The notes under the pieces: generated by a model | The model's database searches: none | What the model was told of the DNA's origin: nothing | Seen by the model: only the letters and a program-made list of their open reading frames with translations | Assembly (NCBI GenBank): GCA_965228135.1 | Contig: OZ245798.1 | Span: forward strand, 2,891,037 to 2,955,036 | Source: Tagaea sp. | GTDB taxonomy: Bacteria; Pseudomonadota; Alphaproteobacteria; CACIAM-22H2 | DNA length: 64,000 nucleotides | Direction of reading: 5' to 3' | Position numbers and translations under genes: made by a program | Shown here: in pieces, positions 1,513 through 54,354 of the stretch | Layout: each line of letters begins with the position of its first letter | Numbering within the stretch: position 1 is the first letter of the stretch

Positions 1513-2735
1513 ACGACCGCCGCCGCTTCCGCCGTCGGGTCGATGCGTTCGGGGCTGTGCCGCCCGACGAGGATCACGCCGGTGGCGCCAAGTAGCGTCG
1601 CCGAGGTGAGATACGCGATGCTGCCGAAAGTGCCGAGCCCGTCGACCAGCAGGCCGCCGAACACCGCACCCCCGGTGATCGCGACCTGGAACGCCGCGAC
1701 CAAAATGCCGCCGGCGGATTCCGCCAAATCGGGCGGGGCGACGCGCATCATCCAGGTCTGGAACCCGACCGGCAGCGCCCCGAAGGCGAAGCCCCACACG
1801 CCGACGGCTGCACCGGCGATCGGGCCCGACGCGCCGAACAGCAGCAGCGTGACGCCCATCGCCGCGATGACGCTCGCCCCGAACACGACCGACGCCTTGG
1901 CGTTGCGCGCGGTGATGATACCGCCGACGAGATTGCCGAAAAAGCCGCCGATTCCGAACGCGAGCAACGCGAGCGAGATCGCCTCCACCGACATTTGCGG
2001 CACGGTTTCCAAGAACGGGCGGATATAGGTGAAGCCGGCGAAATGGCCGGAGATCGTGACGATCACGCCGATCAGCACCAGCGCGATGCTGGGCTTGCGC
2101 GCGAGGATGAGCAACGTGCGCAGATCGGGCGCCCCGCGCGCGGGCAGGCGCGGCAGCGACAAAAGCTGCACCGTCAGCGCCACCACGCCGACGAGCGAGG
2201 CGAGCAGGAACACCGCGCGCCAGCCGATCAACGCGCCAAGATAGGCGCCGATCGGTGCGGCACTGACCGTCGCCACCGACACGCCCATCAGCACCAGCGA
2301 GATCGCGCGCGGCAAGGATTCCGCCGGCACCAAACGCATGGCGATGGCGGCCGCCATCGACCAGAACCCGCCAAGCCCGATGCCGAGCAACACGCGCGCG
2401 ATCAGCAGCGCGGGCAGGCTTTCGGCCGTCGCGGTCAGAATGCTGGAGACGATCAAAGAAACGCTCAGCGTCCAGATCACGAGGCGCCGGTCGATTCCGC
2501 GCGACACGATCGCGGCGATCAGCGCCGCGATGCCCGCCGCGATGGCGGTCGCACTGATCGCCTGTCCGGCGGCCCCCACGGAGACGCCGATATCGGCGGC
2601 CATCGGCGTGAGCAGGCTTGCGGGCAGGAATTCGGCGGTGACGAAGCTGAACGAGCCGAAAGCGAGCGAAACGACGCCCGCCCAAAGCGCCTTTTGCGGC
2701 ATAACGGCCGCAGGCTCGACGTCGGGATTTGACAT
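1509..2735 (-). CDS. MFS transporter (sugar/drug efflux-like)
   Basis: About 12 predicted TM segments and an MFS-like composition. AAGGAA RBS precedes the ATG at 2735. Converges on the upstream gene with a 4-bp overlap. Confidence 0.8.
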   Translation of the reverse strand: MSNPDVEPAAVMPQKALWAGVVSLAFGSFSFVTAEFLPASLLTPMAADIGVSVGAAGQAISATAIAAGIAALIAAIVSRGIDRRLVIWTLSVSLIVSSILTATAESLPALLIARVLLGIGLGGFWSMAAAIAMRLVPAESLPRAISLVLMGVSVATVSAAPIGAYLGALIGWRAVFLLASLVGVVALTVQLLSLPRLPARGAPDLRTLLILARKPSIALVLIGVIVTISGHFAGFTYIRPFLETVPQMSVEAISLALLAFGIGGFFGNLVGGIITARNAKASVVFGASVIAAMGVTLLLFGASGPIAGAAVGVWGFAFGALPVGFQTWMMRVAPPDLAESAGGILVAAFQVAITGGAVFGGLLVDGLGTFGSIAYLTSATLLGATGVILVGRHSPERIDPTAEAAAVV

Positions 2736-2832
2736 GGAAATTCCTTTCGATCCCCGAGATGGGGTCGAAACCCGGTATTTCAATGCCAAATAAATCGCCG
2801 CTCGTTCGAAGCTGCGAACGCGTGACCGCGAA

Positions 2833-3777
2833 TTACGTCGGGCCTTCGGGGCGCGGGGCGGGCGGGATCTGCGATTGGCGCACCGAATTTCGGTGCAGGG
2901 TGTAGATCGCCGCCGCGACGATCAAGGCCGAGCCCGCGATCGTCGCCAGCGTGGGCATCTCGTCGTAAAGCCAATAGCCGACCGCCGCCATCATCAGCAG
3001 CCGCAGATATTGCAGCGGTGCGATCGCCGACGCGTTGCCGGTGCGAAACGCCGTGGTGAACAGCAAGGTCGACACGGCTTGCAGCACGGCCAATACGATG
3101 ATGATCGCGAGCGCGCCTGCCGTGGTCGGCACCCAAACCCACCACGCCATCGGCGCAAAACACGCGATCAGCACCAGGCTTTGGAAGAAGATCACCGTCT
3201 CGGCGGTGTCCAAACGCGAGCCGAAGCGCAACGTGACGACCGACACCGCCCCCGCCGCCGACCCCGCCAAAGCGAGCAGCGCATAGAATTCGATCGGCCC
3301 CGAGAAAGGCTGGAGCATCACGCCCACGCCGAAAAAGCCGACGGCCGTCGCCGACCAGCGCCGCCAGCCGACTTTCTCGCCCAGGAACAGCGCGGCCAGT
3401 GCGGTGATGAACAGCACCTCCGACATCTGGATCGCGGTCACGTCGGCGAAGGGGATATGGACGACGGCGATATTGCCGCACAGCATCGAGCAGACGGCGG
3501 CGGCGCCGCGAAACAGATGCAGGCGCAAGCCTTGCGGATGCAGGATGGCGCTGCGATGGCGCCAGAACAGCGGCGTCATGATCAACACCGCGAAGGTTTG
3601 GCGCAGGAACAGGATCTCGACCACCGGCAGCGTTTCGGCCGCCTTGCGCAGCATGACGCCGGTGACCACGAACATGCACATCGCCGCAAGCATCAACAGC
3701 GAAGCGGCGAAATCGGGCGGTAACGACCGAAAATCGCGCCGCAGGTCTTGTAGCCGCGCGATCGGCGAGGTGGACAA
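2833..3777 (-). CDS. DMT superfamily (EamA-like) transporter
   Basis: Ten hydrophobic segments and EamA-like duplicated repeats. TTG start at 3777 with GGAGGAAG RBS 7 nt upstream. Confidence 0.75.
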   Translation of the reverse strand: MSTSPIARLQDLRRDFRSLPPDFAASLLMLAAMCMFVVTGVMLRKAAETLPVVEILFLRQTFAVLIMTPLFWRHRSAILHPQGLRLHLFRGAAAVCSMLCGNIAVVHIPFADVTAIQMSEVLFITALAALFLGEKVGWRRWSATAVGFFGVGVMLQPFSGPIEFYALLALAGSAAGAVSVVTLRFGSRLDTAETVIFFQSLVLIACFAPMAWWVWVPTTAGALAIIIVLAVLQAVSTLLFTTAFRTGNASAIAPLQYLRLLMMAAVGYWLYDEMPTLATIAGSALIVAAAIYTLHRNSVRQSQIPPAPRPEGPT

Positions 3778-3964
3778 GCGTCTTCCTCCGAGAGATTGGT
3801 AATATCAATCGCTTATCCCCGCCGCGACGACAAGCCTTAAAGGCTCGAACGTCCAATCCAGCGATCAAAAAATGATCTCTAAATAGGTCTTTAAAGGCTT
3901 TTAAAGCTTATTAATGGATCATCACTTGTCGAGAATGAAATTTCGACTATGCTCCATAAAAAGA

Positions 3965-3983
3965 GCGTAAATTTAATTTACGC
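3965..3983. promoter_or_regulatory. Near-perfect inverted repeat GCGTAAATT-T-AATTTACGC in the AT-rich hipB leader; candidate HipB autoregulatory operator
   Basis: Palindrome read directly, sitting within an AT-rich (~35% GC) 170-bp intergenic region immediately 5' of the hipB start. Further CTTTAAAG-type palindromes occur at 3833-3846 and 3887-3908. Confidence 0.35.
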
Positions 3984-3990
3984 CCTAATT

Positions 3991-4341
3991 ATGGATCAAA
4001 TTATGCCGAAACCGCAAAGCCGCACGCTTTCGCGCCAGACGCAAGAAGCATTGGCCCATCTCGGCCATCTCGTTCGCGCGGCGCGCATCACGCGCAAGGA
4101 AACCGTGGCGCAGCTCGCCGAGCGGATGGGCGTCTCGCGCGGACTTCTGCAACGCATCGAGCGCGGCGATCCCGGTTGCGCGGTCGGTGCGGTCTTCGAA
4201 GCAGCTTCCTTGGTCGGCATACGTCTATTCGGTCTCGACCCGGCGCAGCTATCCGCGAACGTCGCGCAATCCGCGCGCGAATTGACGCTGCTGCCGCGCG
4301 CGGCGCGGCGCGCCCGGCGCGAGGTCAAGGATGACTTCTAA
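3991..4341 (+). CDS. hipB: HipB-like XRE-family HTH antitoxin/transcriptional regulator
   Basis: HTH_XRE signature (TQEALAHLGHLVRAARITRKETVAQLAERMGVSRGLLQRIERG). Overlaps hipA by 11 nt. Alternative start at 4003. Confidence 0.7.
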   Translation: MDQIMPKPQSRTLSRQTQEALAHLGHLVRAARITRKETVAQLAERMGVSRGLLQRIERGDPGCAVGAVFEAASLVGIRLFGLDPAQLSANVAQSARELTLLPRAARRARREVKDDF

Positions 4342-5611
4342 ATCGAACGACGAAGCCTATGTCTGGGTCTGGCTGCCGGGCGCCACGGCGCCGATCGTCG
4401 CGGGACGAATCGCGCGCGACGGTGCGCGCTACTTCTTCAACTACGGGCGCAGCTATCTCGAACACAAAGCGGCGATGGCACTCTATCTGCCCGAGATGCC
4501 GTTGCGCCGCGGCGAGATCGCACCGCCGGATGGCCTTGCCATCGCCGGCGCGCTACGCGACGCCGCCCCCGACGCATGGGGACGGCGCGTCATCGTCAAC
4601 CGGCTACTCGGCACGAAGGGTGCGGCGATCGACGTCGATGCGCTCGACGAGATGACTTATCTGCTCGAATCGGGATCGGACCGGATCGGCGCGCTCGATT
4701 TCCAGCGCGCGAGCGACATCTATACGCCGCGCGGCGGCAAGGCCGCGACGCTCGAGGAATTGCAGAATGTCGCCGAGCGCGTGCAGAACGGCGTGCCGCT
4801 GACGCCCGAGCTGGAACAGGCGATGTTCCACGGCTCCAGCCTGGGCGGGGCGCGGCCCAAAGCGGCGATCGAAACGCAAGACGCCAAATTCATCGCCAAA
4901 TTCTCGGCCAGCGGCGACGTTACCAATGTCGTCAAAGCGGAATTCGTCGCGATGCGACTGGCGACGGCGATCGGGCTGGACGCGGCACCGGTCAAGCTCG
5001 AACGCGCGGCGGGCAAGGATGTGCTGCTGGTCGAGCGTTTCGACCGGGTGCGCAAGGGCAAAGCCTGGACACGCAAGGCGATGGTCTCGGCGTTGACGTT
5101 GTTCGGCCTCGACGAAATGATGGGCCGCTATGGGAGCTATCGCGATCTCGCCGACATTGTCCGCGCGCGGTTCACCGAACCCAAAGCGAGTTTGCATGAA
5201 ATTTTTGGCCGATTGGTCTTCAACATTCTGTGCGGCAACACCGACGATCACGCACGAAATCACGCGGCGTTCTGGGACGGCGAGATGCTGACGCTAACCC
5301 CCGCCTACGACATCTGCCCCCAAAATCGAACAGGGCGCGAAGCCAATCAGGCGATGGAAATCGCCGATGGCAACCGCGCGAGCACGCTGGCGAATTGCCT
5401 GGCCGCCGCACCGCATTTCCTGCTGACGGCGAAAGCGGCGCACGACATCGTCGTTGCGCAGATCGAAGCTATTCGCGCGCATTGGCGCGACGTGGCCGAC
5501 GCTGCGGCGTTGACTAGAATCGACAAAGAGATGCTATGGCGCCGGCGCCTGCTCAATCCCTACGCCTTCGACGGCGCGCCCGCCGCCATTGCGGCCCTGG
5601 ATCGGGACTAA
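4331..5611 (+). CDS. hipA: HipA-family serine/threonine kinase toxin
   Basis: HipA N-terminal coupling region plus C-terminal catalytic loop CGNTDDHARNHAAF (HipA D/N motif). Adjacent to and overlapping hipB. Confidence 0.8.
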   Translation: MTSKSNDEAYVWVWLPGATAPIVAGRIARDGARYFFNYGRSYLEHKAAMALYLPEMPLRRGEIAPPDGLAIAGALRDAAPDAWGRRVIVNRLLGTKGAAIDVDALDEMTYLLESGSDRIGALDFQRASDIYTPRGGKAATLEELQNVAERVQNGVPLTPELEQAMFHGSSLGGARPKAAIETQDAKFIAKFSASGDVTNVVKAEFVAMRLATAIGLDAAPVKLERAAGKDVLLVERFDRVRKGKAWTRKAMVSALTLFGLDEMMGRYGSYRDLADIVRARFTEPKASLHEIFGRLVFNILCGNTDDHARNHAAFWDGEMLTLTPAYDICPQNRTGREANQAMEIADGNRASTLANCLAAAPHFLLTAKAAHDIVVAQIEAIRAHWRDVADAAALTRIDKEMLWRRRLLNPYAFDGAPAAIAALDRD

Positions 5612-5628
5612 GCGGATCGGGATTGAAA

Positions 5629-5714
5629 TGGTGCCCCAGGCCGGACTTGAACCAGCACGCCCTTGCGGGCAACAGATTTTGAGTCTGCCGCGTCTACCGT
5701 TCCGCCACTGGGGC
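5629..5714 (-). tRNA. tRNA-Leu (anticodon CAA)
   Basis: Manual fold: 7-bp acceptor GCCCCAG/CTGGGGC, anticodon loop CUCAAAA, long class-II variable arm, TTCAAGTCC T-arm, discriminator A and encoded CCA. Confidence 0.9.
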
Positions 5715-5820
5715 CAACCAAGTCGCCGGATAGAGCGCGCGGGATCATAGGGATAGCGGCGCCCACGTCAACTTTTTTAGGGGGCCTTGCGCGGATCCCT
5801 CGCGCGTCGTAGCCAGAGCC

Positions 5821-6537
5821 ATGGGCCTTCGCCTTTCCGACATCGATATCGCCGTGCTCGCGGGCGGTTTGGGCACGCGCCTGGCCGGCGCGGTCCCCGG
5901 CCTGCCCAAAGTGCTGGCCCCGGTCGCCGGGCGGCCGTTTATCGAACATCTGGTCGATTGGCTGGCGGGTCACGGCGCCAAACGCATCGTCTTCCTGCTC
6001 GGCCATCGCGCGGACATGGTCACCGACCATCTCGCCCGCCATCGCCGCGCCGGGATCGCGTTCGATTGGTCGATCGAACCCGAACCCTTGGGCACGGGCG
6101 GCGCGCTTGCCTTCGCCGCATCCAAATTCCGCAGCGATCCCGTGCTGGTCGTCAACGGCGACACCTTCGTCGATGCCGATCTCGGCGCCTTCTGCGCCGC
6201 CTATGCCAAGCCCGCGACGATGCTGGCGGTCGAGGTCGACGATGCCGGGCGCTATGGGCGGCTCGACATCGCGTACGGCAAAGTCATGCGCTTCGTCGAA
6301 AAGGATCCTTCGTTCACGGGCAAAGCCGCGATCAATGCGGGGCTTTATCTTCTGTCGCGCGACTTGATCGGCGGCATCGCCACCGGCAAACAAGTTTCGC
6401 TCGAACGCGATGTGTTCGAACGCCTCGCACCCGGCACGATCGCCGCCCCGATCGATGCGAAGGCGCGCTTCGTCGATATCGGCACGCCGGAAAGCTGGCA
6501 GAATGCCGCGTCGATCGTCATAGGACCCAAAGCATGA
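5821..6537 (+). CDS. Sugar-phosphate nucleotidyltransferase (GlmU/RmlA/MurU-like)
   Basis: N-terminal LAGGLGTRL nucleotide-binding motif and NGDTF motif. ATGA overlap with the downstream NUDIX gene. Confidence 0.75.
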   Translation: MGLRLSDIDIAVLAGGLGTRLAGAVPGLPKVLAPVAGRPFIEHLVDWLAGHGAKRIVFLLGHRADMVTDHLARHRRAGIAFDWSIEPEPLGTGGALAFAASKFRSDPVLVVNGDTFVDADLGAFCAAYAKPATMLAVEVDDAGRYGRLDIAYGKVMRFVEKDPSFTGKAAINAGLYLLSRDLIGGIATGKQVSLERDVFERLAPGTIAAPIDAKARFVDIGTPESWQNAASIVIGPKA

Positions 6538-41790: not shown

Positions 41791-43808
41791 CGGATACCTA
41801 CTTTAAGTTTTCTATTACTCTTGGTGTCAAAAATTGGCCTACGCTCAATTCGAGCCAAAAATCAGATCGCCAATCGAATAGATTGCATCGCCAAAATTCT
41901 GAATGAGTCTTTCTCCTTGCCTTAGAAAGGAAACATCTTGCCTAATCCCAGCGAGCTCTAAAGCATCTCCTATCTGCTTGCTAGTTGGGTGAGCATCACC
42001 TAGGCGCATCTCATATGTGCCGACAATAGGCCCAAAGACGGAGCGCGCTCTCTCGGCTCCAGCTCTTTGAGCCAAAATATCTTCAAGGAGCTTATTTGTT
42101 TTAAGATCTTCCTTCTTTGCATTTTGTGAAAGTTTACGGAGCTCGCGTACGTCAAGACGATCTGTAAACACACGAACAAGCTCTTTTGCTAACCGCAGTA
42201 AAGACGCCTGGTCTTTACTCATAAATCGAGATACTTGCTGCTTAACCAAGGCATCATTAATATCGTGATTAAATATCTTTATATTAAAGTGTTTTTGAAA
42301 TGCGGCCTCAAGCATTCGCATATTTTCAAACAGCGAATCTTCAACCGCTCGCGTATTTGCAATCTGCGTCTTTACTTGGGCAGACAGTAGCTCTACTGAA
42401 ACTTTGCCATCGGGAGCAACATTATGCGCTGCCCATACATGTTGCTCCCAAGCCGCCAGCCGAGCAATATCATACGCATAGACCGTAATTAGATCAGCGG
42501 CATTGATTCCGAAATGCGTAGAGTACCCGGAGGTGGAGCGAATGCTACCCGTTTCGGCAGTGTGCCATTCCAATGAAAAGCCGCGATGGCTCAAAAGCTC
42601 ACTAACAACAGTTGGTCGAAACCACAACCAGCGTCCGATGTCTTCATTATCTAGTTCGGCAGATGGCATCCGTGAACCATCCGTCTTCACGATGAACTGA
42701 GGAAGAAAGTTATCCACGTCACCGCGAACTCGAATGCTACGACCTTGATGGTCAATCCATTCATCGCGCCAAAATTCTGCTTCCACGCGCACGCCTTCAA
42801 TATCTTGGCGATGGCCCTCTGATTTTTCATATTCTGAATTGCTGCTTGTCTCAGGCCCGAGTATCGGTGCATCTGCTTCCACATCGACGTCGGTTCGCCA
42901 AGATCGAAACAATGCCCAGCTTCCGCCGAATATAGCGTGTAGCGTTCGGACGCTCACTTCGAAGCGGCCATGATCGCGATCTTCGCGACAGTTATTCAAG
43001 CCTTCAAATGGGCTACCTTCGATCGCCAATACATTCGCTACTCTTTGACGATAATAAGATAGGCGTAGGGCTAGATTTCTGGCCGCCAAGTAATCGAGAA
43101 GGAATTCTCGCTTGATTTCGATCTGTTTATGATTCCCGTCTGCATCGAAGATCTCGCGCGCGACAATTACAAAATCTTCCTCCGGCCTAACCCAATTGTC
43201 GCCTTCTTTGATCAACCGAAGCGCAACCACTAGATCAGGATTTAGTATCCATTTTTTCCCGCCAATAACTGGCTGCGGATGCTCAAAGACTAAATGCACG
43301 CCAATCGGATTTTTATCGTTGTAACTATATTGTTCGATGGATGAATAGTATCCATCCTTAAAGGCGCAAGGTTGGGCGCTGCATGCAATTCCGATATCTT
43401 CCCAAGTAAGACCGTCCGCAAACTGCCTATGCTCTGGCGGAAAAGCGACAGACCCACAAAGAAATGAGTCGCTTATGTAGTCTAAATCTCGGACTTCTCC
43501 CCGGGTATCATCGATAGATGCCCGCAGAGGAACCCATGTTGCGTCAGAAAAAAACCGCTGCGTCTCTTTGCGCAGAAGAAGCCACTCTTTATCTACGGTC
43601 ATTTCTCAACAGCCCATGCAAAGGGTAATGAAGAGGCCGTCACAGATTAGAATGGCATTCTAAATAATAAAAGAAACACATTTAAAGGTATCGATCTACT
43701 CGCAGTGCCTATTCGTGCTTTTACTTTGAGTTATTGGGCTTGAAGCCGACGGCAGAGGATGGTGGCTTAGGGCAAGCGGAAGAAAAACGAAACTATGATC
43801 AATATGTA
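41791..43808. mobile_element. Low-GC (~45% vs ~67% flanks) genomic islet inserted at the 3' end of tRNA-Arg, bracketed by 9-bp direct repeats CGCGTGGCG (41782-41790 and 43809-43817); no integrase present
   Basis: Abrupt composition shift read directly. Right repeat overlaps the tRNA-Arg 3' terminus. Single cargo ORF. Confidence 0.5.
41845..43602 (-). CDS. Orphan 585-aa protein of unknown function (island cargo; candidate defence/abortive-infection-type gene)
   Basis: Long uninterrupted ORF in AT-rich DNA, where random ORFs of this length are very unlikely. Trp-rich, no signal peptide, TM segment, Walker motifs or any recognisable catalytic motif. Confidence 0.6.
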   Translation of the reverse strand: MTVDKEWLLLRKETQRFFSDATWVPLRASIDDTRGEVRDLDYISDSFLCGSVAFPPEHRQFADGLTWEDIGIACSAQPCAFKDGYYSSIEQYSYNDKNPIGVHLVFEHPQPVIGGKKWILNPDLVVALRLIKEGDNWVRPEEDFVIVAREIFDADGNHKQIEIKREFLLDYLAARNLALRLSYYRQRVANVLAIEGSPFEGLNNCREDRDHGRFEVSVRTLHAIFGGSWALFRSWRTDVDVEADAPILGPETSSNSEYEKSEGHRQDIEGVRVEAEFWRDEWIDHQGRSIRVRGDVDNFLPQFIVKTDGSRMPSAELDNEDIGRWLWFRPTVVSELLSHRGFSLEWHTAETGSIRSTSGYSTHFGINAADLITVYAYDIARLAAWEQHVWAAHNVAPDGKVSVELLSAQVKTQIANTRAVEDSLFENMRMLEAAFQKHFNIKIFNHDINDALVKQQVSRFMSKDQASLLRLAKELVRVFTDRLDVRELRKLSQNAKKEDLKTNKLLEDILAQRAGAERARSVFGPIVGTYEMRLGDAHPTSKQIGDALELAGIRQDVSFLRQGERLIQNFGDAIYSIGDLIFGSN

Positions 43809-43812
43809 CGCG

Positions 43813-43889
43813 TGGCGTCCCCGAGAGGAATCGAACCTCCGACCTACAGTTTAGGAAACTGCCGCTCTATCCTGCTGAGCTACGGGGAC
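43813..43889 (-). tRNA. tRNA-Arg (anticodon CCU)
   Basis: Manual fold: acceptor GTCCCCG/CGGGGAC, D-arm TAGCTCAGCAGGATAGAGC, anticodon loop UUCCUAA, T-loop GGAGGTTCGATTCC, encoded CCA. 77 nt. Confidence 0.9.
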
Positions 43890-43935
43890 CAAGGCCACGC
43901 GGAATGGGCTTATAGCATAGGCCCCGAAACGCCGA

Positions 43936-45387
43936 CTAGTTGGCGGCGGCGGGCGCCGGGCGCGGGGCGCGGCCCAAGCGCTCCTCCCCCTGCTGCATGG
44001 CGAGGCTATAGGCCACGTAATATTTATAGATATTGCCGACGTAATGGACCGTTTCGGCGCCCACGATGCGCGCCGCCGCGACCTCGACATTGTCGAACCA
44101 GACATTGGGGTCGAGGCCCATTTGCGTCGCGCGCCGGCGGAATTTGCGCAAATTTCCCGGCCCCGCGTTATAGGCGGCGAAGGTCAGCAGCGTCCGGTCG
44201 ACCTCGTCGAGCGCGGGATCGTTGACGTAGCGCTTGCGCAACAGCGCCATCACCGCCGCCCCGGCTTTGATGTTGAGATCGGGGTCGTGCGCCACGCCCT
44301 TGATGCCGATGGGCGGCGCTTCCGCCGTGCTGGGCAGCAATTGCATGATGCCGACGGCCCCGCGCGGGCTGACCTGTTTCTGGTCGAGCCGCGATTCCTG
44401 ATAGCCCTGGGCGGCCAGCAGCAGATAGTCGAAATTGGCGGTGCCGGCATGGCGGCGGAAGCTTTCGACCATCGCGCCGAACCGCGCGGAATCGTCGGCG
44501 GCGGCGGCGTTGCGCACCGTCGCGCGGCCGCCGTAATAACGGCGCAGGATCGTGGCGCCGAAGGCGGTGCCCTGCTTGCGCGCGGCGAAGAATTCGTCGA
44601 GCTCGGCTTTCAACAGCGGCGAGTCCGGGCGGATGGCCCAGGCGATTTCGCCGCCCTCGTTGAACACGATATCGGGCCGCAGGGTCAGCTTCGTGTCCGC
44701 GCGCCCCCAAAATCCGGCGACATGCGAATCCGCGATCGCCCAGGGCAGCAAACCGGCGCCGACCATCTGCAACACGTCTTCGGTCTGCAGCCGCGCCGAC
44801 AGTTTGACGACCTTGATCGGCGCCAAGCCGCGCTTGGCGAAATCGGCGTTGATCGCGTCGACATGCTCGATATAGCTGGTCCCCTCGCGCACCGGCAATT
44901 CGCGCCCCGCGAGATCGTCGAGCCCGGCGAGTGTCGCGGGTGCGGCCGGGCCGGTCACGAGAATCTCGTCGACGCCGGTGAGCCAGGGCTGCGCGAAATC
45001 GACGATTTCCGCGCGCTTCTCGGTGATCGTGAGATTGGCCGCGACCGCGTCGCCGCGCCCGTTCAGCAACGCCGAAAACAGCTTGTCGCGCGATGTGGGC
45101 ACGAACACGACGCGGATCGGCAAGCCCTTCTTGGCGTGGCGCTTGTTGAGCCAGGTTTCGAATTCGCGGCCGAACTCGGCGGCCACGCCCATCTCGCGGC
45201 CCTTGTCGATGAAGAAATGGGTTTTGCTATAGGGCACGATCAAGCGGAACGCGCGTTCCGTCAGGATCGTGTCGAGATCGCCGCTGCGCACGCTTTGCGT
45301 GGGCAGCGCCACGGGCTTGCGCTGCTGCGCCGCGGCGGGTGCCGCGAACAGAGCCAACACCAAAAATGCGGCGGCGAAGCGCTTCAT
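43936..45387 (-). CDS. mltF: Membrane-bound lytic murein transglycosylase F (SBP_bac_3 domain + SLT domain)
   Basis: Signal peptide, N-terminal amino-acid SBP-like domain, C-terminal SLT motifs (YQESRLD, GAVGIMQLLP, AYNAGPG). Start ATG at 45387. Confidence 0.8.
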   Translation of the reverse strand: MKRFAAAFLVLALFAAPAAAQQRKPVALPTQSVRSGDLDTILTERAFRLIVPYSKTHFFIDKGREMGVAAEFGREFETWLNKRHAKKGLPIRVVFVPTSRDKLFSALLNGRGDAVAANLTITEKRAEIVDFAQPWLTGVDEILVTGPAAPATLAGLDDLAGRELPVREGTSYIEHVDAINADFAKRGLAPIKVVKLSARLQTEDVLQMVGAGLLPWAIADSHVAGFWGRADTKLTLRPDIVFNEGGEIAWAIRPDSPLLKAELDEFFAARKQGTAFGATILRRYYGGRATVRNAAAADDSARFGAMVESFRRHAGTANFDYLLLAAQGYQESRLDQKQVSPRGAVGIMQLLPSTAEAPPIGIKGVAHDPDLNIKAGAAVMALLRKRYVNDPALDEVDRTLLTFAAYNAGPGNLRKFRRRATQMGLDPNVWFDNVEVAAARIVGAETVHYVGNIYKYYVAYSLAMQQGEERLGRAPRPAPAAAN

Positions 45388-47915: not shown

Positions 47916-49427
47916 ATGATCACCTTGTCCCGCTTTCGCGGCGCGCTGGCCGCGTCCGCCCTCGCCCTCGCGGCCCTGACGCTGGGCGCTTGCGCGCAGA
48001 ACCAAGCGACCGGCCGCTCGCAATTCGTCACCATGTCGGCGGCGGACGAAGCCAAGATCGGCGCGGACGAGCATCCCAAAGTGCTGGAGGCTTTCGGCGG
48101 CGCCTATAACAATCCGCGCTTGGCCGCCTATGTGCAGCGCGTGGGCGAAGGTTTGGCGCGCCGCTCCGAACTGCCCGATCTCAAATTCACCTTCACGGTG
48201 TTGAATTCGGACATCTACAACGCCTTCGCGCTGCCCGGCGGTTATGTCTACATCACGCGCGGGTTGCTGGCGCTGATGGGCAGCGAGGCGGAGCTCGCCT
48301 CCGTCCTCGGCCACGAGATCGGCCACGTCACCGCGCGCCACACGGCCGAGCGTATGGCGCAAACCACCGCCGCGAATATCGGCGCCACGATCTTCTCGAT
48401 CGGTGTGGCGGTCCTCACGGGCTCGAGCGACGCGGGCAATCTCGCGGGCCAAGCCTCGGGCGCCATCGCGGGCACGGTGCTCGCCTCCTATTCGCGCGAC
48501 CAGGAATTCGAGGCCGACAAGCTGGGCGTGCGCTACATGTCGCTGGTCGGCTACAACCCCGACGAAGCGGCCGATATGCTCGCCAAGCTCGGCCAGGGCG
48601 CGCGGCTTGAAATGCAGATCGCCGGGCGCTCGCCCGACGAGGCCGATCAATTCTCGATCATGCAGACCCATCCGCGCACCGCCGACCGCGTGCGCGAAGC
48701 GCTCGCCGCCGCGCGCGCGCAAGGGCTGCAAGCGGTCGCGAACCCACGCGAAAACGTCGAGGAATATTACGCCGCGATCGAGGGCATGGCGGTGGGCGGC
48801 GACGCCGATTCGGGTTTCGTCAAAGGCCGCACCTTCACCCATCCCAAGCTGCGTTTCCGTTTCGAAGCGCCCGAGAAATACCGGCTGAGCGACAGCCAGG
48901 ATGCGGTGCGCGCCACCGGCCCCGACGGCGCGCAGATCACCTTCGACATGCGCCGCGGCCGCGCGGCCGATCCCGCGACGTTCCTCGCCGGCGAATGGGC
49001 GAAGGGCGCCCAGCTTGCGGGCGTGGAGCGCATCACGGTCAACGGCATGCAAGCGGCGACCGGCGTCACGCGGTTGCGCGGCCAGAACGGGGCGGTCGAT
49101 GCGCGGCTGGTCGCGATCCGCATGCCCGACGGCACCTATTTCCGCATTCTGTTCCTCGCCCCGCCGCAGGTGATGACGCGCGAACAGGAGGCGTTCCGGC
49201 GCACGACCTATTCGGTGCGCTCGCTGACCGCGCAGGAAGCGCAAGCGGCGGAGCCGCTGCGCATCCGCCTGGTGCGCGCCGCCGCCGGCGATAATTTCGA
49301 CTCGCTCGCGCGCCGCATGACGGCGAATGACGGGTTCGAGCGCGAGCGCTTCCGCATCATCAACGGGATGCGCGAAGGCGAAGCGCCGGTCGCCGGGCGG
49401 CTCTATAAAATCGTCGCGGAGCGGTGA
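47916..49427 (+). CDS. M48-family zinc metalloprotease lipoprotein
   Basis: Lipobox LTLGAC, HEIGH zinc motif and downstream E for the third ligand. Confidence 0.8.
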   Translation: MITLSRFRGALAASALALAALTLGACAQNQATGRSQFVTMSAADEAKIGADEHPKVLEAFGGAYNNPRLAAYVQRVGEGLARRSELPDLKFTFTVLNSDIYNAFALPGGYVYITRGLLALMGSEAELASVLGHEIGHVTARHTAERMAQTTAANIGATIFSIGVAVLTGSSDAGNLAGQASGAIAGTVLASYSRDQEFEADKLGVRYMSLVGYNPDEAADMLAKLGQGARLEMQIAGRSPDEADQFSIMQTHPRTADRVREALAAARAQGLQAVANPRENVEEYYAAIEGMAVGGDADSGFVKGRTFTHPKLRFRFEAPEKYRLSDSQDAVRATGPDGAQITFDMRRGRAADPATFLAGEWAKGAQLAGVERITVNGMQAATGVTRLRGQNGAVDARLVAIRMPDGTYFRILFLAPPQVMTREQEAFRRTTYSVRSLTAQEAQAAEPLRIRLVRAAAGDNFDSLARRMTANDGFERERFRIINGMREGEAPVAGRLYKIVAER

Positions 49428-49631: not shown

Positions 49632-51455
49632 ATGTCTGCCCTGCCCCGTATGCCGTTCGACATGTCCGACGACGATTACGGCGTCCCGTTTCAAATGCCG
49701 GGACGCTCGAACGGGTTCTTCGACCTCGATGCCGATGTGGGGCTCGGCTATCCCACGCGCCGCGCCGACAACATCAAGGTCCAGACGATCCTCGGAAACG
49801 CCGGGGATCTCGACCTCGCCAAGACCGATGGGCCCACCGGCTGGGGGCTCTACACGTTGGACGACGCGATCCGGTCGTACCAGAAGCGCAACGATTTGAA
49901 GGTCGATGGCTGGCTGCGCCCGGGCGGGCCGACGATTTCCAAGATGCGCGACCAGTTCGGCGCGAGCCTGGGAAAATACCCGGCCCCGAGCCCGCGCGAA
50001 GTCGACGAACATCACGACCGTTTGGCCCAAGGCGAACCCGGTCTGCTGAACGGCACCTACGGCGAATTGAAACTCGCGCCGATCTCCGGCCTGCCCGCAC
50101 CCGATGAAGATATGGTCGGGTCGAACCGCTCGATGGCCGAATATCTCCAGCGTCATCGCAGCGGTCTGGCCGACGCGCCGGATACGCTCGCCTCTTACAT
50201 CCGCACGATGGGTGTGCCCGGCATCGTCCAGGCGCGCGACTTCGTCGGGCAATGGGACCAAACGAAACCCGGCCAAGGCGGCGACGCGATCCGCGCGATC
50301 CTGACCGCCCTGGGCGACGCGCCCGAGCTGCAACGGCAATTCTTCGGCGGCCCGATCGCCAATGACCGCCCGATCGGGATTCGGATCGACGATCTGGTGT
50401 ACCGGCCCGGCGAAGACGAAAGCGTCGCGGTCCCGCTGCCATATCGGCCGGGCGAAATTGGGGCCCCGATTCGTCTGCCTTACACGCCGCCGCTATCGCG
50501 CGACGGGCTGCTCGATCCCGAATACATCAAGGCGTTCGGCGAACGCCTCGCGGCCAAGCGCGCGTTCGAGGAACAGGAGCGCGCCAACACGGTCTATGAC
50601 GACGGCTTGCTCGACGCGAACAACTGGCCGCCGCATTTGCGCGCCCGCTTGCTCGGCGATGCGCAAGCCAGCGACGACGCGAATCAGAACTTCAGCGGGA
50701 ACGACCGGCTCCAGCCCGCCGATGCGCCGGAGGCGACGGAGGAGGAATTCACCGGCCAAGACGAAGACGCCGACGCGATCCAAATCGCCGAAGCCAAAGG
50801 CCGTCCGTCGCAGCCCGCGCAACGACCGCCGGCGTCGACAGCACCGAAGCCGCCAGCGCCAAAACCGACAGCACCGCAAGCGCGTCCACCAGCGACGCCG
50901 GTGCTATCGTCGAAGTTCCGCGAGGCGATTTCCGCTGCCGAAGCTGGCGATAATCCGGTCCCGCCTTGGGATGCCAGGAACCCAGGTTCGACGGCAATCG
51001 GTCGATATCAGATTCTCAAGGATGCTTTTGTCGATGCGGGCTTGAAGGACGCAAGCGGAAATTGGCGTGCGGGCAATGCGCTGGGCGTAAAGACCGATGC
51101 CGAATTTCTTGCCAGCCAGGACGCGCAGAACAAAGCGTTCGACATGATAATGGCGCGAAACGACAAGCAACTTAAAAGTAATGGCGCTTATAACCATATC
51201 GGCAAAGACGTCGATGGCCTCAAGGACAAGTTCAAAATAACCGAATCCGGTCTTTTGGCGGCGGCACATCGGCAAGGCGCCGGGGCCGTCCGCGACTATC
51301 TGGTGCGGATGCGCGAGAATGAATGGAATTCTCAAAAGGGACTGGATGAAATCCAAAATTCGGACAGAAACCCGCAGCAAATTAAGTCGATGATGGATGC
51401 GCACAAAGCCATCGAACAGCGCTTGAGGGAATTCACCAATGTCCCGCACCGATGA
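49632..51455 (+). CDS. Large protein copy 1: peptidoglycan-binding domain + Pro-rich linker + divergent lytic transglycosylase (SLT)-like C-terminal domain; no signal peptide
   Basis: PG_binding_1-like repeat (VQTILGNAGDLDLAKTDGPTGWGLYTLDDAIRSYQKRNDLKVDGWLRPGGPT). C-terminal E-A-G..NP....N.GS.AIGRYQI...NGAYNHIG pattern matches the SLT E-S/GLMQ/AYNxG motif spacing. The track start at 49500 is a TTG inside the predicted -10, so I prefer the ATG at 49632 with GGAG RBS. Confidence 0.6.
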   Translation: MSALPRMPFDMSDDDYGVPFQMPGRSNGFFDLDADVGLGYPTRRADNIKVQTILGNAGDLDLAKTDGPTGWGLYTLDDAIRSYQKRNDLKVDGWLRPGGPTISKMRDQFGASLGKYPAPSPREVDEHHDRLAQGEPGLLNGTYGELKLAPISGLPAPDEDMVGSNRSMAEYLQRHRSGLADAPDTLASYIRTMGVPGIVQARDFVGQWDQTKPGQGGDAIRAILTALGDAPELQRQFFGGPIANDRPIGIRIDDLVYRPGEDESVAVPLPYRPGEIGAPIRLPYTPPLSRDGLLDPEYIKAFGERLAAKRAFEEQERANTVYDDGLLDANNWPPHLRARLLGDAQASDDANQNFSGNDRLQPADAPEATEEEFTGQDEDADAIQIAEAKGRPSQPAQRPPASTAPKPPAPKPTAPQARPPATPVLSSKFREAISAAEAGDNPVPPWDARNPGSTAIGRYQILKDAFVDAGLKDASGNWRAGNALGVKTDAEFLASQDAQNKAFDMIMARNDKQLKSNGAYNHIGKDVDGLKDKFKITESGLLAAAHRQGAGAVRDYLVRMRENEWNSQKGLDEIQNSDRNPQQIKSMMDAHKAIEQRLREFTNVPHR

Positions 51456-52086
51456 GCCCTCCATCCGTTCGATCATCGCTGGGGTCGCCTTGCTGGCCGC
51501 CGTTGCCGCACTCAGCGAATCGATGGCGATACCGATCGTCGCGAACGCCGAATGGTCGAGGCACGGCTTCGAAGTAGTTCCTTTGTACGATCTCACCCAG
51601 GCGCGCGACCCGGAACTCATCGCGCTCGCCGAACGCGTTATCGCAAGCGATCCAGATTTAGCCGCGCATTACGAAAATCCGAAAATCGACGAGCTGTTCG
51701 GATTCGATGCCAGCCAGGTCTATGTCGGCCGCGTGCGGATCGAACCGAAAGGGCAGCCTTGGGTCGCCATCGTCATCAGTGCGAGCAATTATTGCGGCAC
51801 GGCCGGATGTTCGACGTCGTACCTGTTCGCCAAGCACAACGGCGAATGGCGGCCCCAAACGTGGTTTTTTCGATCCGATCCGCCGCCTGCACCGATGGCA
51901 ATATTGTTGACGACGTCGCCGACGGTCGGTTGGATACCTGGAAGAAGTGGCGCGCGCGCGGGACGGGCGCAGTTATTTCCGGTCTTGATCAACGGTCGTC
52001 GCGTCATCCGGGGCGAGGATGGCGGGCAGTTCTGGGATGGCAAAGAATGGCAAGATTTTTGCCGTCGTTGCAATGAACTGGGCTGA
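51439..52086 (+). CDS. Small Cys-containing exported companion protein copy 1 (candidate inhibitor/immunity protein)
   Basis: 215 aa with N-terminal charged region plus hydrophobic core (signal-peptide/anchor-like) and 5 Cys. Start overlaps the large-gene stop by 17 nt (translational coupling). Confidence 0.6.
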   Translation: MSRTDEPSIRSIIAGVALLAAVAALSESMAIPIVANAEWSRHGFEVVPLYDLTQARDPELIALAERVIASDPDLAAHYENPKIDELFGFDASQVYVGRVRIEPKGQPWVAIVISASNYCGTAGCSTSYLFAKHNGEWRPQTWFFRSDPPPAPMAILLTTSPTVGWIPGRSGARAGRAQLFPVLINGRRVIRGEDGGQFWDGKEWQDFCRRCNELG

Positions 52087-53723
52087 TGTTCGGCCAAGGC
52101 GGCAACGCGATCCGCAGCTATCAGAAGCGCAACGATCTGAAAATCGATGGCTGGCTGCGCCCCGGCGGGCCGACGATCACGAAGATGCGCGACCAGTTTG
52201 GCGCGAGCCTGGGAAAATACCCGGCCCCGAGCCCGCGCGAGGTCGACGAACATCATGACCGTTTGGCGCAAGGCGAACCCGGTCTGCTGAACGGCACTTA
52301 CGGCGCGATCAAACTCGCGCCGATCCCCGGCCTGCCAGCCCCGGACGAGGATATGGTCGGCTCGAACCGATCGATGGCCGAATATCTCCAGCGCCATCGC
52401 AGCGGCCTGGCCGACGCGCCCGAGATGCTCGCGGCTTATGTCCGCAATCAGGGCCTACCCGGCATCGTCCAGGCGCGCGACTTCGTGAACCAGTGGGACC
52501 AAACCAAGCCCGGCCAAGGCGGCGACGCGATCCGCGCGATCCTATCGGCCCTGGGCGACACGCCCGATCTGCAACGCCAATTCTTCGGCGGCCCGATCGC
52601 CAACGACCGACCGATCGGGATTCGCATCGGCGATATGCGCGGCGAAATCAGCGATATGCTGCACCGGCCCGGCGATGATAAAGGCGCCGCAACACCGCTG
52701 CCGCACCGGCCCGGCGAGGAAGGCCCGATGGTCCGCCAGCCTTACGCCTCGTTGCCGCCGCTATCGCGCGACGGGCTGCTCGATCCCGACTACGTCAAAG
52801 CATTCGGCGAGCGCTTGGACGCCAAGCGCGAATTCGAGGAACAGCAGCGCGCCAACGCCGTCTACGACGACGGCTTGCTCGACGCCAACAACTGGCCGCC
52901 GCATTTGCGCGCCCGCTTGCTCGGCGATGCGCAAGCCAGCGACGACGCGAATCAGAACTTCAGCGGGAACGACCAGTTCCAGCCCGCGAATGCGCCGGAA
53001 ACGACGGACGAGGATTTCACCGGCCAAGACGAAGACGCCGACGCGATCCAAATCGCCGAAGCCAAAGGCCGGAAGCAGCAACCCGCGCAACGGCCGCCGG
53101 TATCAGCAGCACCGAAGCCGCCAGCGCCGAGACCGACAGCACCGCAGGCGCGTCCGCCTTCGACGCCGGCGCTATCGTCGAATTTCCGCGACGCAATCGC
53201 CACCGCCGAAGCAGGCAACATTCCTGTCCCGCCCTGGGGTACGGTGAACTCAGGCTCGAAGGCAATGGGTCGATATCAGATTCTGCCGAAGACTTTCGTC
53301 GATGCGGGTTTGAAGGACGCAAGCGGAAATTGGCGTGCGGGCAATGCGTTGGGCGTCAAGACCGATGCCGAGTTTCTTGCCAGCCAGAATGCGCAAAACA
53401 AGGCGTTCGACATGATAATGGCGCGAAACGACAAGCAACTTAAAAGTAATGGCGCTTATAACCATGTCGGCAAAGACGTCGATGGACTTGAGGCCAAGTT
53501 CAAAATAACCGAATCGGGCCTTTTGGCGGCGGCACATCGGCAAGGCGCTAGGGCCGTCCGCGACTATCTGGTGCGGATGCGCGAGAATGAATGGAATTCT
53601 CAAAAGGGGCTGGATGAAATCCAAAATTCGGACAGAAGCCCGAAGGAAATTGAGTCGATGGAGAAGGCACACAAAGCCATCGAACAGCGCTTGAGGGAAT
53701 TCGCCAATGTCCCGCACCGATGA
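52086..53723 (+). CDS. Large protein copy 2 (N-terminally shorter paralog): partial PG-binding domain + linker + SLT-like C-terminal domain
   Basis: ~85-90% identical to copy 1 from AIRSYQKRNDLK onward, with an 8-aa indel. Start ATG overlaps the preceding stop (TGATG). Confidence 0.55.
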   Translation: MFGQGGNAIRSYQKRNDLKIDGWLRPGGPTITKMRDQFGASLGKYPAPSPREVDEHHDRLAQGEPGLLNGTYGAIKLAPIPGLPAPDEDMVGSNRSMAEYLQRHRSGLADAPEMLAAYVRNQGLPGIVQARDFVNQWDQTKPGQGGDAIRAILSALGDTPDLQRQFFGGPIANDRPIGIRIGDMRGEISDMLHRPGDDKGAATPLPHRPGEEGPMVRQPYASLPPLSRDGLLDPDYVKAFGERLDAKREFEEQQRANAVYDDGLLDANNWPPHLRARLLGDAQASDDANQNFSGNDQFQPANAPETTDEDFTGQDEDADAIQIAEAKGRKQQPAQRPPVSAAPKPPAPRPTAPQARPPSTPALSSNFRDAIATAEAGNIPVPPWGTVNSGSKAMGRYQILPKTFVDAGLKDASGNWRAGNALGVKTDAEFLASQNAQNKAFDMIMARNDKQLKSNGAYNHVGKDVDGLEAKFKITESGLLAAAHRQGARAVRDYLVRMRENEWNSQKGLDEIQNSDRSPKEIESMEKAHKAIEQRLREFANVPHR

Positions 53724-54354
53724 GCCCTCCATCCGTTCGATCATCGCCGGGGTCGCCTTGCTGGCCGCCGTCGCGGCACTCAGCGAATCGATGGCGATAC
53801 CGATCGTCGCAAACGCCCAATGGTCGAGGGATCGCGTCGAAGTGGTTCCTTTGTACGATCTTACCCAGACGCGCGACCCGGAACTCATCGCGCTCGCCGA
53901 ACGCGTTATCGCAAGCGATCCAGATTTAGCCGCGCATTACGAAAATCCGAAAATCGACGAGCTGTTCGGATTCGATGCCAGCCAGGTCTATGTCGGCCGC
54001 GTGCGGATCGAACCGAAGGGACAGCCCTGGGTCGCCTTCGCCGTTGGCGCGGGTGCGTATTGCGGCACGGCCGGGTGTTCGGCGTCGGCGCTGTTCGCCA
54101 AGCGCAACGGCGAATGGCATGCTCAAACGCCGTTCTATGCATACGATCCACCGCCTGCGCGGATGGCAATATTGTTGACGAAATCGCCGATGGTCGGTCG
54201 GATACCGGAAAGATATCGCGCACGCGCGGGACGGGCGCAGTTATTTCCGGTCTTGATCAACGGCCGTCGCGTCATCTGGGATGATGATGGCGGGCTGTTC
54301 TGGGATGGCAAAAAATGGGAAGGTTTTTGTCGTCTTTGCAATGAACTGGGCTGA
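53707..54354 (+). CDS. Small Cys-containing exported companion protein copy 2
   Basis: ~88% identical to copy 1. Substitutions clustered in a central patch (VAIVISASNY/VAFAVGAGAY, STSYLFAKHNGEWRPQTWFFRS/SASALFAKRNGEWHAQTPFYAY). Confidence 0.6.
   Translation: MSRTDEPSIRSIIAGVALLAAVAALSESMAIPIVANAQWSRDRVEVVPLYDLTQTRDPELIALAERVIASDPDLAAHYENPKIDELFGFDASQVYVGRVRIEPKGQPWVAFAVGAGAYCGTAGCSASALFAKRNGEWHAQTPFYAYDPPPARMAILLTKSPMVGRIPERYRARAGRAQLFPVLINGRRVIWDDDGGLFWDGKKWEGFCRLCNELG

Follow-up and report, generated by a model that had tools for sequence, protein, structure and literature searches.

A tandem locus in Tagaea sp. pairs large proteins carrying a putative lysozyme-like domain with candidate periplasmic immunity proteins

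Described toxin–immunity pairs and the Tagaea locus

Polymorphic toxin–immunity systems such as contact-dependent growth inhibition (CDI; CdiA-CT/CdiI), Rhs and MafB combine a conserved N-terminus with C-terminal toxin domains that recombine; the downstream immunity gene changes with the toxin domain, and displaced toxin ends and orphan immunity genes occur alongside. In CDI and Rhs loci, a full-length cassette is followed by 5'-truncated orphan modules. A glucosaminidase toxin domain, with a lysozyme-like fold, is listed in the survey of polymorphic toxins by Zhang et al. 2012 (PMC3482391). Pesticin is a signal-less toxin with a phage-lysozyme-like C-terminal muramidase, and its partner Pim, a small immunity protein of the periplasm, is specific for the activity domain (PMC3390615). 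Periplasmic immunity also accompanies the glycoside-hydrolase effectors of type VI secretion systems (T6SS), namely Tse3/Tsi3, Tge/Tgi, VgrG3/TsiV3 and the pesticin-like VgrG3cp (PMC9927483, PMC9620997). Among inhibitors of lysozymes, those built on a β-sheet are periplasmic and reach into the active site with a loop that joins antiparallel strands (PMC7677548); in Ivy this loop is the disulfide-closed CKPHDC, that is C-x4-C, and Ivy also inhibits or controls bacterial lytic transglycosylases (PMC3660660). Spackle of phage T4 is a 75-aa α-helical bundle acting as an allosteric inhibitor of the gp5 tail lysozyme (PMC7677548). Here we compare with these systems a locus of Tagaea sp. that encodes two large proteins, L1 and L2, each followed by a small companion protein, S1 and S2. 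It lies in a stretch of 64,000 nucleotides (nt) of contig OZ245798.1 (positions 2,891,037 to 2,955,036, forward strand), referred to below as the window.

The locus consists of four intact plus-strand open reading frames (ORFs) between an M48 peptidase gene (ending at 49427) and a minus-strand Bac_transf gene (ending at 54392; Table 1). In both pairs the 3' end of the large gene and the start of the small gene overlap by 17 nt, and the ATG of L2 overlaps the stop of S1 (TGATG). The two tandem units are 87.5% identical over 2255 nt columns (blastn), L2 lacks the first 77 residues of L1, and the flanking genes are 91-96% nt identical to those of Tagaea (Rhodospirillaceae) genomes and metagenomic contigs. 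The locus has the defining genomic features of polymorphic toxin–immunity loci, minus a recognisable trafficking module, and L2 is reminiscent of the orphan toxin modules displaced within CDI and Rhs loci. The explanation we favour, at a probability of about 0.65, is that S1 and S2 are periplasmic immunity (inhibitor) proteins against the C-terminal domain of L1 and L2, here called LT_A, and that the large proteins belong to a polymorphic family of cell-wall toxins.

Each of the described systems resembles the locus in part. As in CDI, Rhs and MafB systems, a conserved N-terminus is joined to recombining C-terminal domains, the downstream small gene changes with the domain, and displaced toxin ends and orphan small genes are found; unlike them, the Tagaea proteins are short (~550-610 aa) and lack filamentous, RHS and VENN/PT-HINT elements as well as a recognisable secretion domain. 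The known C-terminal domains of the Tagaea loci target peptidoglycan, so that immunity must be periplasmic. With pesticin–Pim, the locus shares a putative toxin lacking a signal peptide, a probably lysozyme-like C-terminus, a small and predicted periplasmic partner alongside, and an N-terminal part that would serve uptake. Unlike pesticin–Pim and the colicin types, it offered no identifiable TonB box, receptor-binding domain or lysis gene, the Tagaea loci are chromosomal and syntenic, not plasmid-borne, and their proteins are not similar in sequence to Pim or pesticin. T6SS pairs likewise consist of a lysozyme-like effector and an adjacent signal-peptide-bearing, fast-evolving immunity protein, with orphan immunity genes; VgrG, PAAR, MIX, FIX and Hcp features and nearby T6SS genes, which would mark such a pair, are absent here.

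The comparison with dedicated lysozyme inhibitors concerns the small proteins. Like Ivy, S1 and S2 have a C-x4-C between two predicted antiparallel strands, their loop being CGTAGC, without His. The first-pass annotation of the window had likened them to Ivy/PliC-type inhibitors on the strength of their Cys pairs. Membership in either family was not borne out: neither protein gave a Pfam match at E<=1 or a Foldseek or profile match in the PDB, Ivy (PF08816) was matched neither by sequence nor by profile or fold, and MliC/PliC (PF09864), PliG and PliI by no domain, profile or fold. Inhibitors of the Ivy/PliC type are, moreover, genetically unlinked defence or housekeeping proteins, whereas S1 and S2 are coupled to the toxin gene. 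As in T4 Spackle–gp5, a periplasmic, disulfide-type protein (as predicted for S1 and S2) would be the partner of a phage-type lysozyme, and the LT_A/small pair also occurs in phage modules (see L014 below); unlike Spackle, S1 and S2 are ~180-aa β-rich proteins. By function, the closest counterparts would be pesticin–Pim, the T6SS glycoside-hydrolase pairs and, in the phage context, Spackle–gp5.

Exchangeable C-terminal domains and linked small genes

The L1 N-terminal region (~250-400 aa) is shared by 32 homologues that bear at least three unrelated C-termini: LT_A, type B (glucosaminidase PF01832, E=1.4e-5) and type C (BPSL0067 family NF033857, E=1.8e-16); other C-termini are also present among them. 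N-terminal identity to L1 reaches 93% over the matched stretch and is ~40-50% in the most distant homologues. Judged from these alignments, the large proteins appear to form a family of Tagaea and other Rhodospirillales with a conserved ~400-aa N-terminal region and an exchangeable killing domain. The slot between the M48 peptidase and Bac_transf genes holds a single cassette of LT_A plus small gene in seven related loci (L001-L006 and L012). In L007 the same slot is occupied by a type C toxin with a 140-aa signal-peptide ORF, by what is left of a second type C toxin end, by a paralogous small ORF and by an orphan protein homologous to the type B partner (E=2e-18). A second slot, from G_glu_transpept to ABC_tran, contains type B and a 207-aa ORF in L046, and in L010 type C, a 141-aa ORF and an orphan small-family gene that follows a 23-aa remnant of an LT_A tail. 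A further orphan small-family gene was found in the Tagaea-like contig L013, where a DUF4893 gene (E=8e-11; L013:2059-2763, minus strand) lies between the type C immunity genes and the orphan.

The downstream small gene thus changes together with the C-terminal domain of the large protein. Type C partners form one family of 139-141 aa (34% identity, E=3e-23), and the type B partners of Tagaea-like loci are homologous proteins of 207 and 223 aa (E=2e-18), to which the type B partner of the distant locus L009 is unrelated. A hydrophobic, signal-like segment opens nearly all of the downstream small partners that were examined. In hidden Markov model (HMM) scans of 46 loci, 13 out of the 18 LT_A loci from Alphaproteobacteria had a gene of the S1/S2 family (the small family) directly downstream of LT_A and in the same orientation; in the five exceptions a different signal-bearing small ORF overlaps the LT_A stop. 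The LT_A/small-family pair also occurs in L008 (38% large-protein identity, another chromosomal site), L015, L014 (three times) and one contig from IMG/VR, and tandem arrays of two to four small paralogues were found in L020, L024 and L025. The array of L025 (890-3709), where an LT_A protein is followed by four tandem paralogues of 189-232 aa, most ending in KRGEPCPDD and one variant in KRGEPCPGR, looks like an immunity-gene array.

Some occurrences of LT_A lie outside the Tagaea-like setting. The contig L014 (Logan SRR30566757, 1-8524) carries a podovirus-like structural module comprising major head, tail tubular protein A and tail protein (PHROG matches at E 1e-67, 1.6e-54 and 7e-216), whose major head and tail-tubular genes are separated by three LT_A genes and four small-family genes; one of these LT_A genes encodes a signal peptide but no catalytic helix, and a second one is split. 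On the IMG/VR contig L045 (IMGVR_UViG_2806310486_000002, ~1975-5898), two genes with a common N-terminus, MTVLPSRDDTGADH, and different C-termini lie on either side of a second LT_A gene plus a small-family gene, so that a polymorphic-toxin-like architecture is also present on a contig classed as viral. In ten chromosomes of Vicinamibacterales (Acidobacteriota; L033-L042), a partial LT_A-like segment (profile ~31-137) occurs without a small-family gene next to it; the middle of LT_A therefore exists outside Alphaproteobacteria, in a different context.

L1, like the homologous large proteins, has no signal peptide. A longer, TTG-initiated ORF (49500) that might give L1 a signal or lipobox was rejected, the extension not being conserved in orthologues. 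L1 is laid out as the conserved N-terminal ~400 aa, a Pro-rich linker and the C-terminal LT_A domain. Pfam scans of L1 and L2 returned nothing besides weak, sub-threshold matches to PG_binding_1 (in the N-terminal region of L1, E=0.0035, below the cut-off) and DUF4092, and L1 could be assigned to no usable family in NCBIfam, PHROGs or PADLOC. LT_A and the small family have no annotation, being absent from Pfam, NCBIfam and PHROGs. In the LT_A alignment (A5), the residues E20, G40, Y42, Q43 and A126-A-A-H-R-x-G132 are invariant, and distant members read ESGG or ESQG (ESxG) at the Glu motif. We take these motifs to be equivalent to those of SLT domains, that is the catalytic Glu (E-S/A), G-x-(M/Y)-Q and an AYNxG-like motif. 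The AlphaFold2 (AF2) model of LT_A has a mean predicted local confidence (pLDDT) of 77. In a Foldseek search of BFVD, at least 11 of the top 20 matches were named SLT, LT_GEWL, tail lysozyme, endolysin or destabilase, the best having a probability of ~1.0, E 5e-3 to 2e-2 and template-modelling (TM) scores of 0.35-0.48; against the PDB, lysozyme-superfamily matches (pesticin at the top; also T4 lysozyme fusions, MltD and RpfC) were non-significant. On the modelled fold and these motifs, LT_A is probably a divergent lysozyme/lytic-transglycosylase-like domain.

The small family is tiny: five close sequences were found among 5.8 billion proteins, all from Tagaea-like sources, and a profile search of 1.8 billion representatives gave 19 matches. 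Its distant members also start with a hydrophobic, signal-like segment. W137, C208 and C211 are invariant (alignments A2 and A3) and R98, G123, P161, G196, W199, G201 and F207 nearly so; every family-invariant residue is retained in S1 and in S2. The CGTAGC loop is invariant in the five close alleles, and C-x4-C is kept in most distant members. The AF2 model of S1 (pLDDT 82, predicted TM score 0.73) has a β-rich mature part, and the CGTAGC loop is a plausible candidate, by analogy with Ivy (PMC3660660) and the other β-sheet inhibitors (PMC7677548), for a loop that plugs an active site. S1 and S2 matched no Pfam family at E<=1 and nothing in NCBIfam, PHROGs or PADLOC; sequence and profile searches of the PDB with S1 and the small-family alignment A3 gave chance matches only, and Foldseek of the S1 model against 350,542 PDB chains gave nothing at E<0.6. 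Its top 50 contained no Ivy entry and no Tsi or Tgi structure was matched, while non-significant matches to the FG-GAP propeller of integrin α recurred. In the distant homologues P0039, P0040, P0046, P0048 and P0054, a D-(L/V)-x-x-D-G-x-P-E-L-(I/F)-V motif precedes C-x4-C; this motif, in the region of S1 residues ~96-137, recalls FG-GAP/VCBS repeats.

Differences between the two copies

Both 215-aa ORFs are real and the peptide strings quoted from them by the first-pass annotation accurate, with the identity, put there at ~88%, coming to 180/215 (84%) on computation; 35 amino-acid and 67 nt differences separate S1 from S2. Five of the 35 fall in residues 1-104, 15 in 105-150 and 15 in 151-215. 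The distribution is non-uniform, as the proposed pile-up at ~105-150 would have it (N half 5/104 versus C half 30/111, Fisher p=6e-6; best 46-residue window over the whole protein, permutation p=0.012), but the patch is no different from the rest of the C half: residues 105-150 (15/46) could not be distinguished from 151-215 (15/65; p=0.29), nor did a scan-statistic permutation within 105-215 single out any stretch (p=0.58). Of the two termini that had been described as invariant, only the signal-like one is, residues 1-37 showing silent changes only (dN 0, dS 0.147, for non-synonymous and synonymous rates); the last 25 residues contain 8 differences (32%), a density equal to that of the central patch, with the Cys residues alone conserved.

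Alignment of more homologues gave a divided answer. Among five alleles, mean pairwise diversity peaks at residues 131-150 (0.35, or 0.29 without S1), and columns with at least three states are concentrated in residues 105-150 (9/46 versus 9/169 elsewhere, p=0.005), so that the hotspot persists; yet further peaks occur at residues 186-205 and 61-80. The dN/dS check that had been proposed did not favour positive selection: the patch reached 0.55-0.68 for pairs including S1 and 0.22-0.49 for other pairs, and the C-terminal half of S1 pairs was raised to 0.5-0.7. Positive selection as judged by pairwise dN/dS was rejected on these values, the small gene being nowhere above 1. Between genomes, the small gene nevertheless evolves faster than its surroundings, with dN of 0.03-0.135 and dN/dS of 0.17-0.33, against dN of 0.000-0.041 and dN/dS of 0.00-0.16 for the flanking genes, whose dS broadly overlaps that of the small gene. 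Of 78 cassette comparisons, 97% also showed greater divergence in the small protein than in the LT_A partner (mean identity across cassettes 27%, versus 44% for LT_A).

The two copies are mosaics. The 148-nt tract in which S1 and S2 are identical (Table 1) is the longest identical run among the 67 nt differences (permutation p<1e-5), and because its third codon positions are likewise unchanged (p=0.009), gene conversion over the tract is indicated; part of the conserved half is then not due to selection, since it is a conversion tract. The same segment is merely ~80% nt identical to the L001 allele, and codons 56-104 are 99% nt identical between S1 and S2 in a segment-wise comparison of alleles. 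The S2 centre has 96% nt identity to the L010 allele, the orphan small gene of that locus, which is 93% nt identical to S2 overall, whereas the S1 centre has 77-83% nt identity to each of the known alleles. Private residues number 22 in S1 (12 of these within 111-146) and 4 in S2; by this comparison S2 is the consensus-like copy. A recombination mosaic, together with variable loops, accounts for much of the contrast between S1 and S2, with no single cleanly diversified patch. L1/S1 and L2/S2 are as diverged as alleles of different strains, and a simple recent duplication in situ was rejected for copies that are this diverged and mosaics of other alleles.

Differences between the large proteins also cluster. 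Residues 426-465, around the putative catalytic helix and G-x-Y-Q, differ at 15 of 40 positions between L1 and L2, and the tail (566-605) has a dN/dS of ~1.08, while in the LT_A core 1 of 40 residues differs and dN/dS is 0.03-0.2; these clusters are compatible with an evolving interface. Residues 241-330 of L2 are 96% identical to the L012 allele. L1 residues 78-330 are 97-100% identical to P0012, a glucosaminidase-type paralogue in the same 5.34-Mb genome, the near-identity covering the N-terminal ~330-390 residues (49632-50800 in the window). Read from the sequences, this implies that two distant toxin loci of the same genome have very recently recombined or undergone gene conversion.

Explanations weighed and remaining features

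According to the explanation that we favour, the window would hold a full-length cassette, L1/S1, followed by a 5'-truncated, displaced cassette, L2/S2, each killing domain being followed by its own translationally coupled, signal-peptide-bearing small gene. The large proteins, lacking a signal peptide, would be exported or released by some route not using a Sec signal, and LT_A would cleave peptidoglycan in the periplasm of the recipient. The Sec-exported small proteins would bind LT_A in the periplasm and block its cleft, possibly by means of the disulfide-closed CGTAGC loop, and the variable residues around this loop would tune which LT_A alleles are neutralised. The uneven differences between S1 and S2 have two sources: a conversion tract that homogenised codons 55-104, together with an S2 centre close to the allele of another genome, and fast-evolving surface loops (138-146, 168-172, 191-193 and 203-206) plus strand 111-117, which in the model would surround the conserved C-x4-C loop.

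Several observations weigh against this explanation. The fold assignment of LT_A rests on matches at E ~5e-3 and on motifs, its catalytic helix is modelled at pLDDT below 50, and the domain had no Pfam match in 8 sequences and no sequence or profile match in the PDB (domain or alignment A5). Endolysins and autolysins, too, combine a PG_binding_1-like segment with a lytic domain. Apart from the sub-threshold PG_binding_1 segment, no secretion or trafficking module could be recognised in the large proteins; Pfam and NCBIfam scans of the locus flanks revealed no T6SS, type IV, V or VII secretion (T4SS, T5SS, T7SS), CDI or lysis genes in the neighbourhood. By the same scans there was no VgrG, PAAR, Hcp, MIX, FIX or adaptor, the flanks being housekeeping genes in all loci. 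In no region of the small gene does pairwise dN/dS exceed 1, five alleles being too few for site models, and the changes at 111-117 (I>F, V>A, I>V, S>G) resemble substitutions in a β-strand core, not at an interface. The unusual centre is in S1 and the unusual toxin patch in L2, the L1 patch being consensus-like; with the divergent parts mismatched in this way, simple pairwise co-diversification is not evident. Gene linkage, polymorphism, orphan modules, mosaicism and rate differences are observed; the immunity role is a prediction supported by this genomic pattern, and we infer toxicity, binding and inhibition as well as the route of export and any S1/S2 specificity difference. The immunity or inhibitor role proposed by the first-pass annotation is supported by gene overlap, co-occurrence with LT_A, partner swaps and orphans; its patch-limited diversification is not established, nor is a divergence in specificity.

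Other explanations account for some of these data. Were the tandem to have arisen by duplication in situ, followed by positive selection on one central patch that gave S1 and S2 cognate-only specificities, one would expect the non-random differences, the 131-150 hotspot that holds across five alleles and the clustering of L1/L2 differences by the putative catalytic helix and in the tail (dN/dS ~1.08); such a course is improbable given a patch that is inseparable from the rest of the C half (p=0.29) with dN/dS of 0.55-0.68 at most, an asymmetry of 22 private residues in S1 to 4 in S2 with the divergent toxin patch in L2, and mosaic copies diverged like inter-strain alleles, which point to acquisition and displacement and not to local divergence. 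The same asymmetry, the dN/dS of up to 0.5-0.7 in the C-terminal half of S1 pairs and the loss of 77 residues from L2 would suit the decay of one copy under relaxed constraint, whether that copy is fast-evolving S1 or the truncated L2 together with S2; the clustering of differences would then carry no functional meaning. We hold this to be improbable as well: all four ORFs are intact, both small proteins keep the family-invariant residues, dN/dS stays below 1 and L2 retains its catalytic motifs with an LT_A core at 0.03-0.2.

A role without any inter-bacterial component, in which the large protein would be an endogenous lytic transglycosylase that remodels peptidoglycan and the small one its periplasmic control inhibitor (compare Ivy/MltB), draws on the location among housekeeping genes at conserved chromosomal slots, on the PG_binding_1-like N-terminal segment typical of autolysins and on the reported control of bacterial lytic transglycosylases by Ivy (PMC3660660). 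It is quite unlikely: large proteins without a signal peptide could not reach the cell's own periplasm by Sec, a housekeeping enzyme would hardly exchange three unrelated catalytic domains within one locus in closely related strains or leave toxin ends and small genes orphaned, and non-synonymous rates are several-fold above those of flanking genes. Less likely still is a phage-derived lysin/anti-lysin pair, with LT_A as a virion or lysis enzyme, the small protein as an inhibitor acting in superinfection exclusion or lysis control, and the Tagaea loci as domesticated remnants. The LT_A and small genes inside the head–tail module of L014, the pair on the IMG/VR contig, the phage tail and SLT proteins among the best fold matches of LT_A and the precedent of Spackle as a periplasmic inhibitor of a tail lysozyme (PMC7677548) would fit it; but there are no phage genes within +/-10 kb of the Tagaea loci, PHROGs matches neither protein, and a conserved 400-aa N-terminus with swappable C-termini is an architecture of toxins, not of virion proteins.

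A broader proposal, which we put forward tentatively and consider rather doubtful, is that LT_A and the small Cys-loop protein might constitute a previously undescribed mobile lysin/anti-lysin cassette common to podophages and to chromosomal, polymorphic, bacteriocin-like toxins of Rhodospirillales, with a route of export or uptake involving neither a signal peptide nor a known secretion marker and an inhibitor of new β-fold in which an Ivy-like, disulfide-closed plug arose convergently and flanking hypervariable loops set allele specificity. Should the favoured explanation be true, the locus would provide a new peptidoglycan-targeting toxin domain, a new periplasmic immunity fold and a new N-terminal carrier region, from a poorly studied source group, the Tagaea and other Rhodospirillales of marine, wastewater and gut metagenomes. 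Together with the orphan alleles and the phage copies, S1 and S2 would form a natural allelic series for the specificity of inhibitor loops towards lysozyme-like enzymes, and the same cassette in phage structural modules would tie bacterial toxin immunity to the control of phage lysins. Current concepts are not overturned, the logic being the established one of toxin and immunity.

Table 1. Coordinates, in the window, of the genes, domains and sequence features discussed
Feature	Coordinates	Strand	Description	Basis
L1, full-length large protein	49632..51455	+	607 aa from ATG 49632; true start possibly a few codons downstream	ORF list
Two tandem repeat units	49864-52086 and 52105-54354 (span 49864..54354)	+		blastn, synteny tables
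LT_A domain of L1	50895..51452	+	invariant Glu E437 in AEAG; G-x-Y-Q; AAAHRxG	alignment A5
S1, small companion protein 1	51439..52086	+	215 aa	ORF list
S1 residues 1-37, predicted Sec signal peptide	51439..51549	+	hydrophobic core IIAGVALLAAVAAL, A-N-A motif before E38	read from sequence
148-nt identical tract, S1/S2	51602..51749 (counterpart 53870-54017)	+	gene conversion or recent recombination	
C119-G-T-A-G-C124, C-x4-C loop	51793..51810	+	between predicted strands 108-117 and 124-133	alignments, DSSP on AF2 model
S1 residues 138-146	51850..51876	+	strongest variability hotspot among close alleles; strand end and next loop	
C208-R-R-C211, C-terminal Cys pair	52060..52071	+	invariant across the whole small family (C-x2-4-C)	
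L2, N-terminally truncated large protein	52086..53723	+	545 aa	ORF list
LT_A domain of L2	53163..53720	+	catalytic-motif residues intact	HMM match E=2e-101
S2, small companion protein 2	53707..54354	+	215 aa	ORF list

A scan for sigma-70 promoters and terminators gave a result no better than that for shuffled sequence. Elsewhere in the window, a 585-aa ORF (41845-43602, minus strand) with no Pfam or PADLOC match lies near a tRNA-Arg(CCT) gene (43813-43889) in a stretch of low GC content (0.49 for 42001-44000, against 0.62-0.70 elsewhere in the window). At its position, related genomes have a Hepar_II_III gene or directly the SBP_bac_3-SLT gene, and the stretch is probably a small acquired island.

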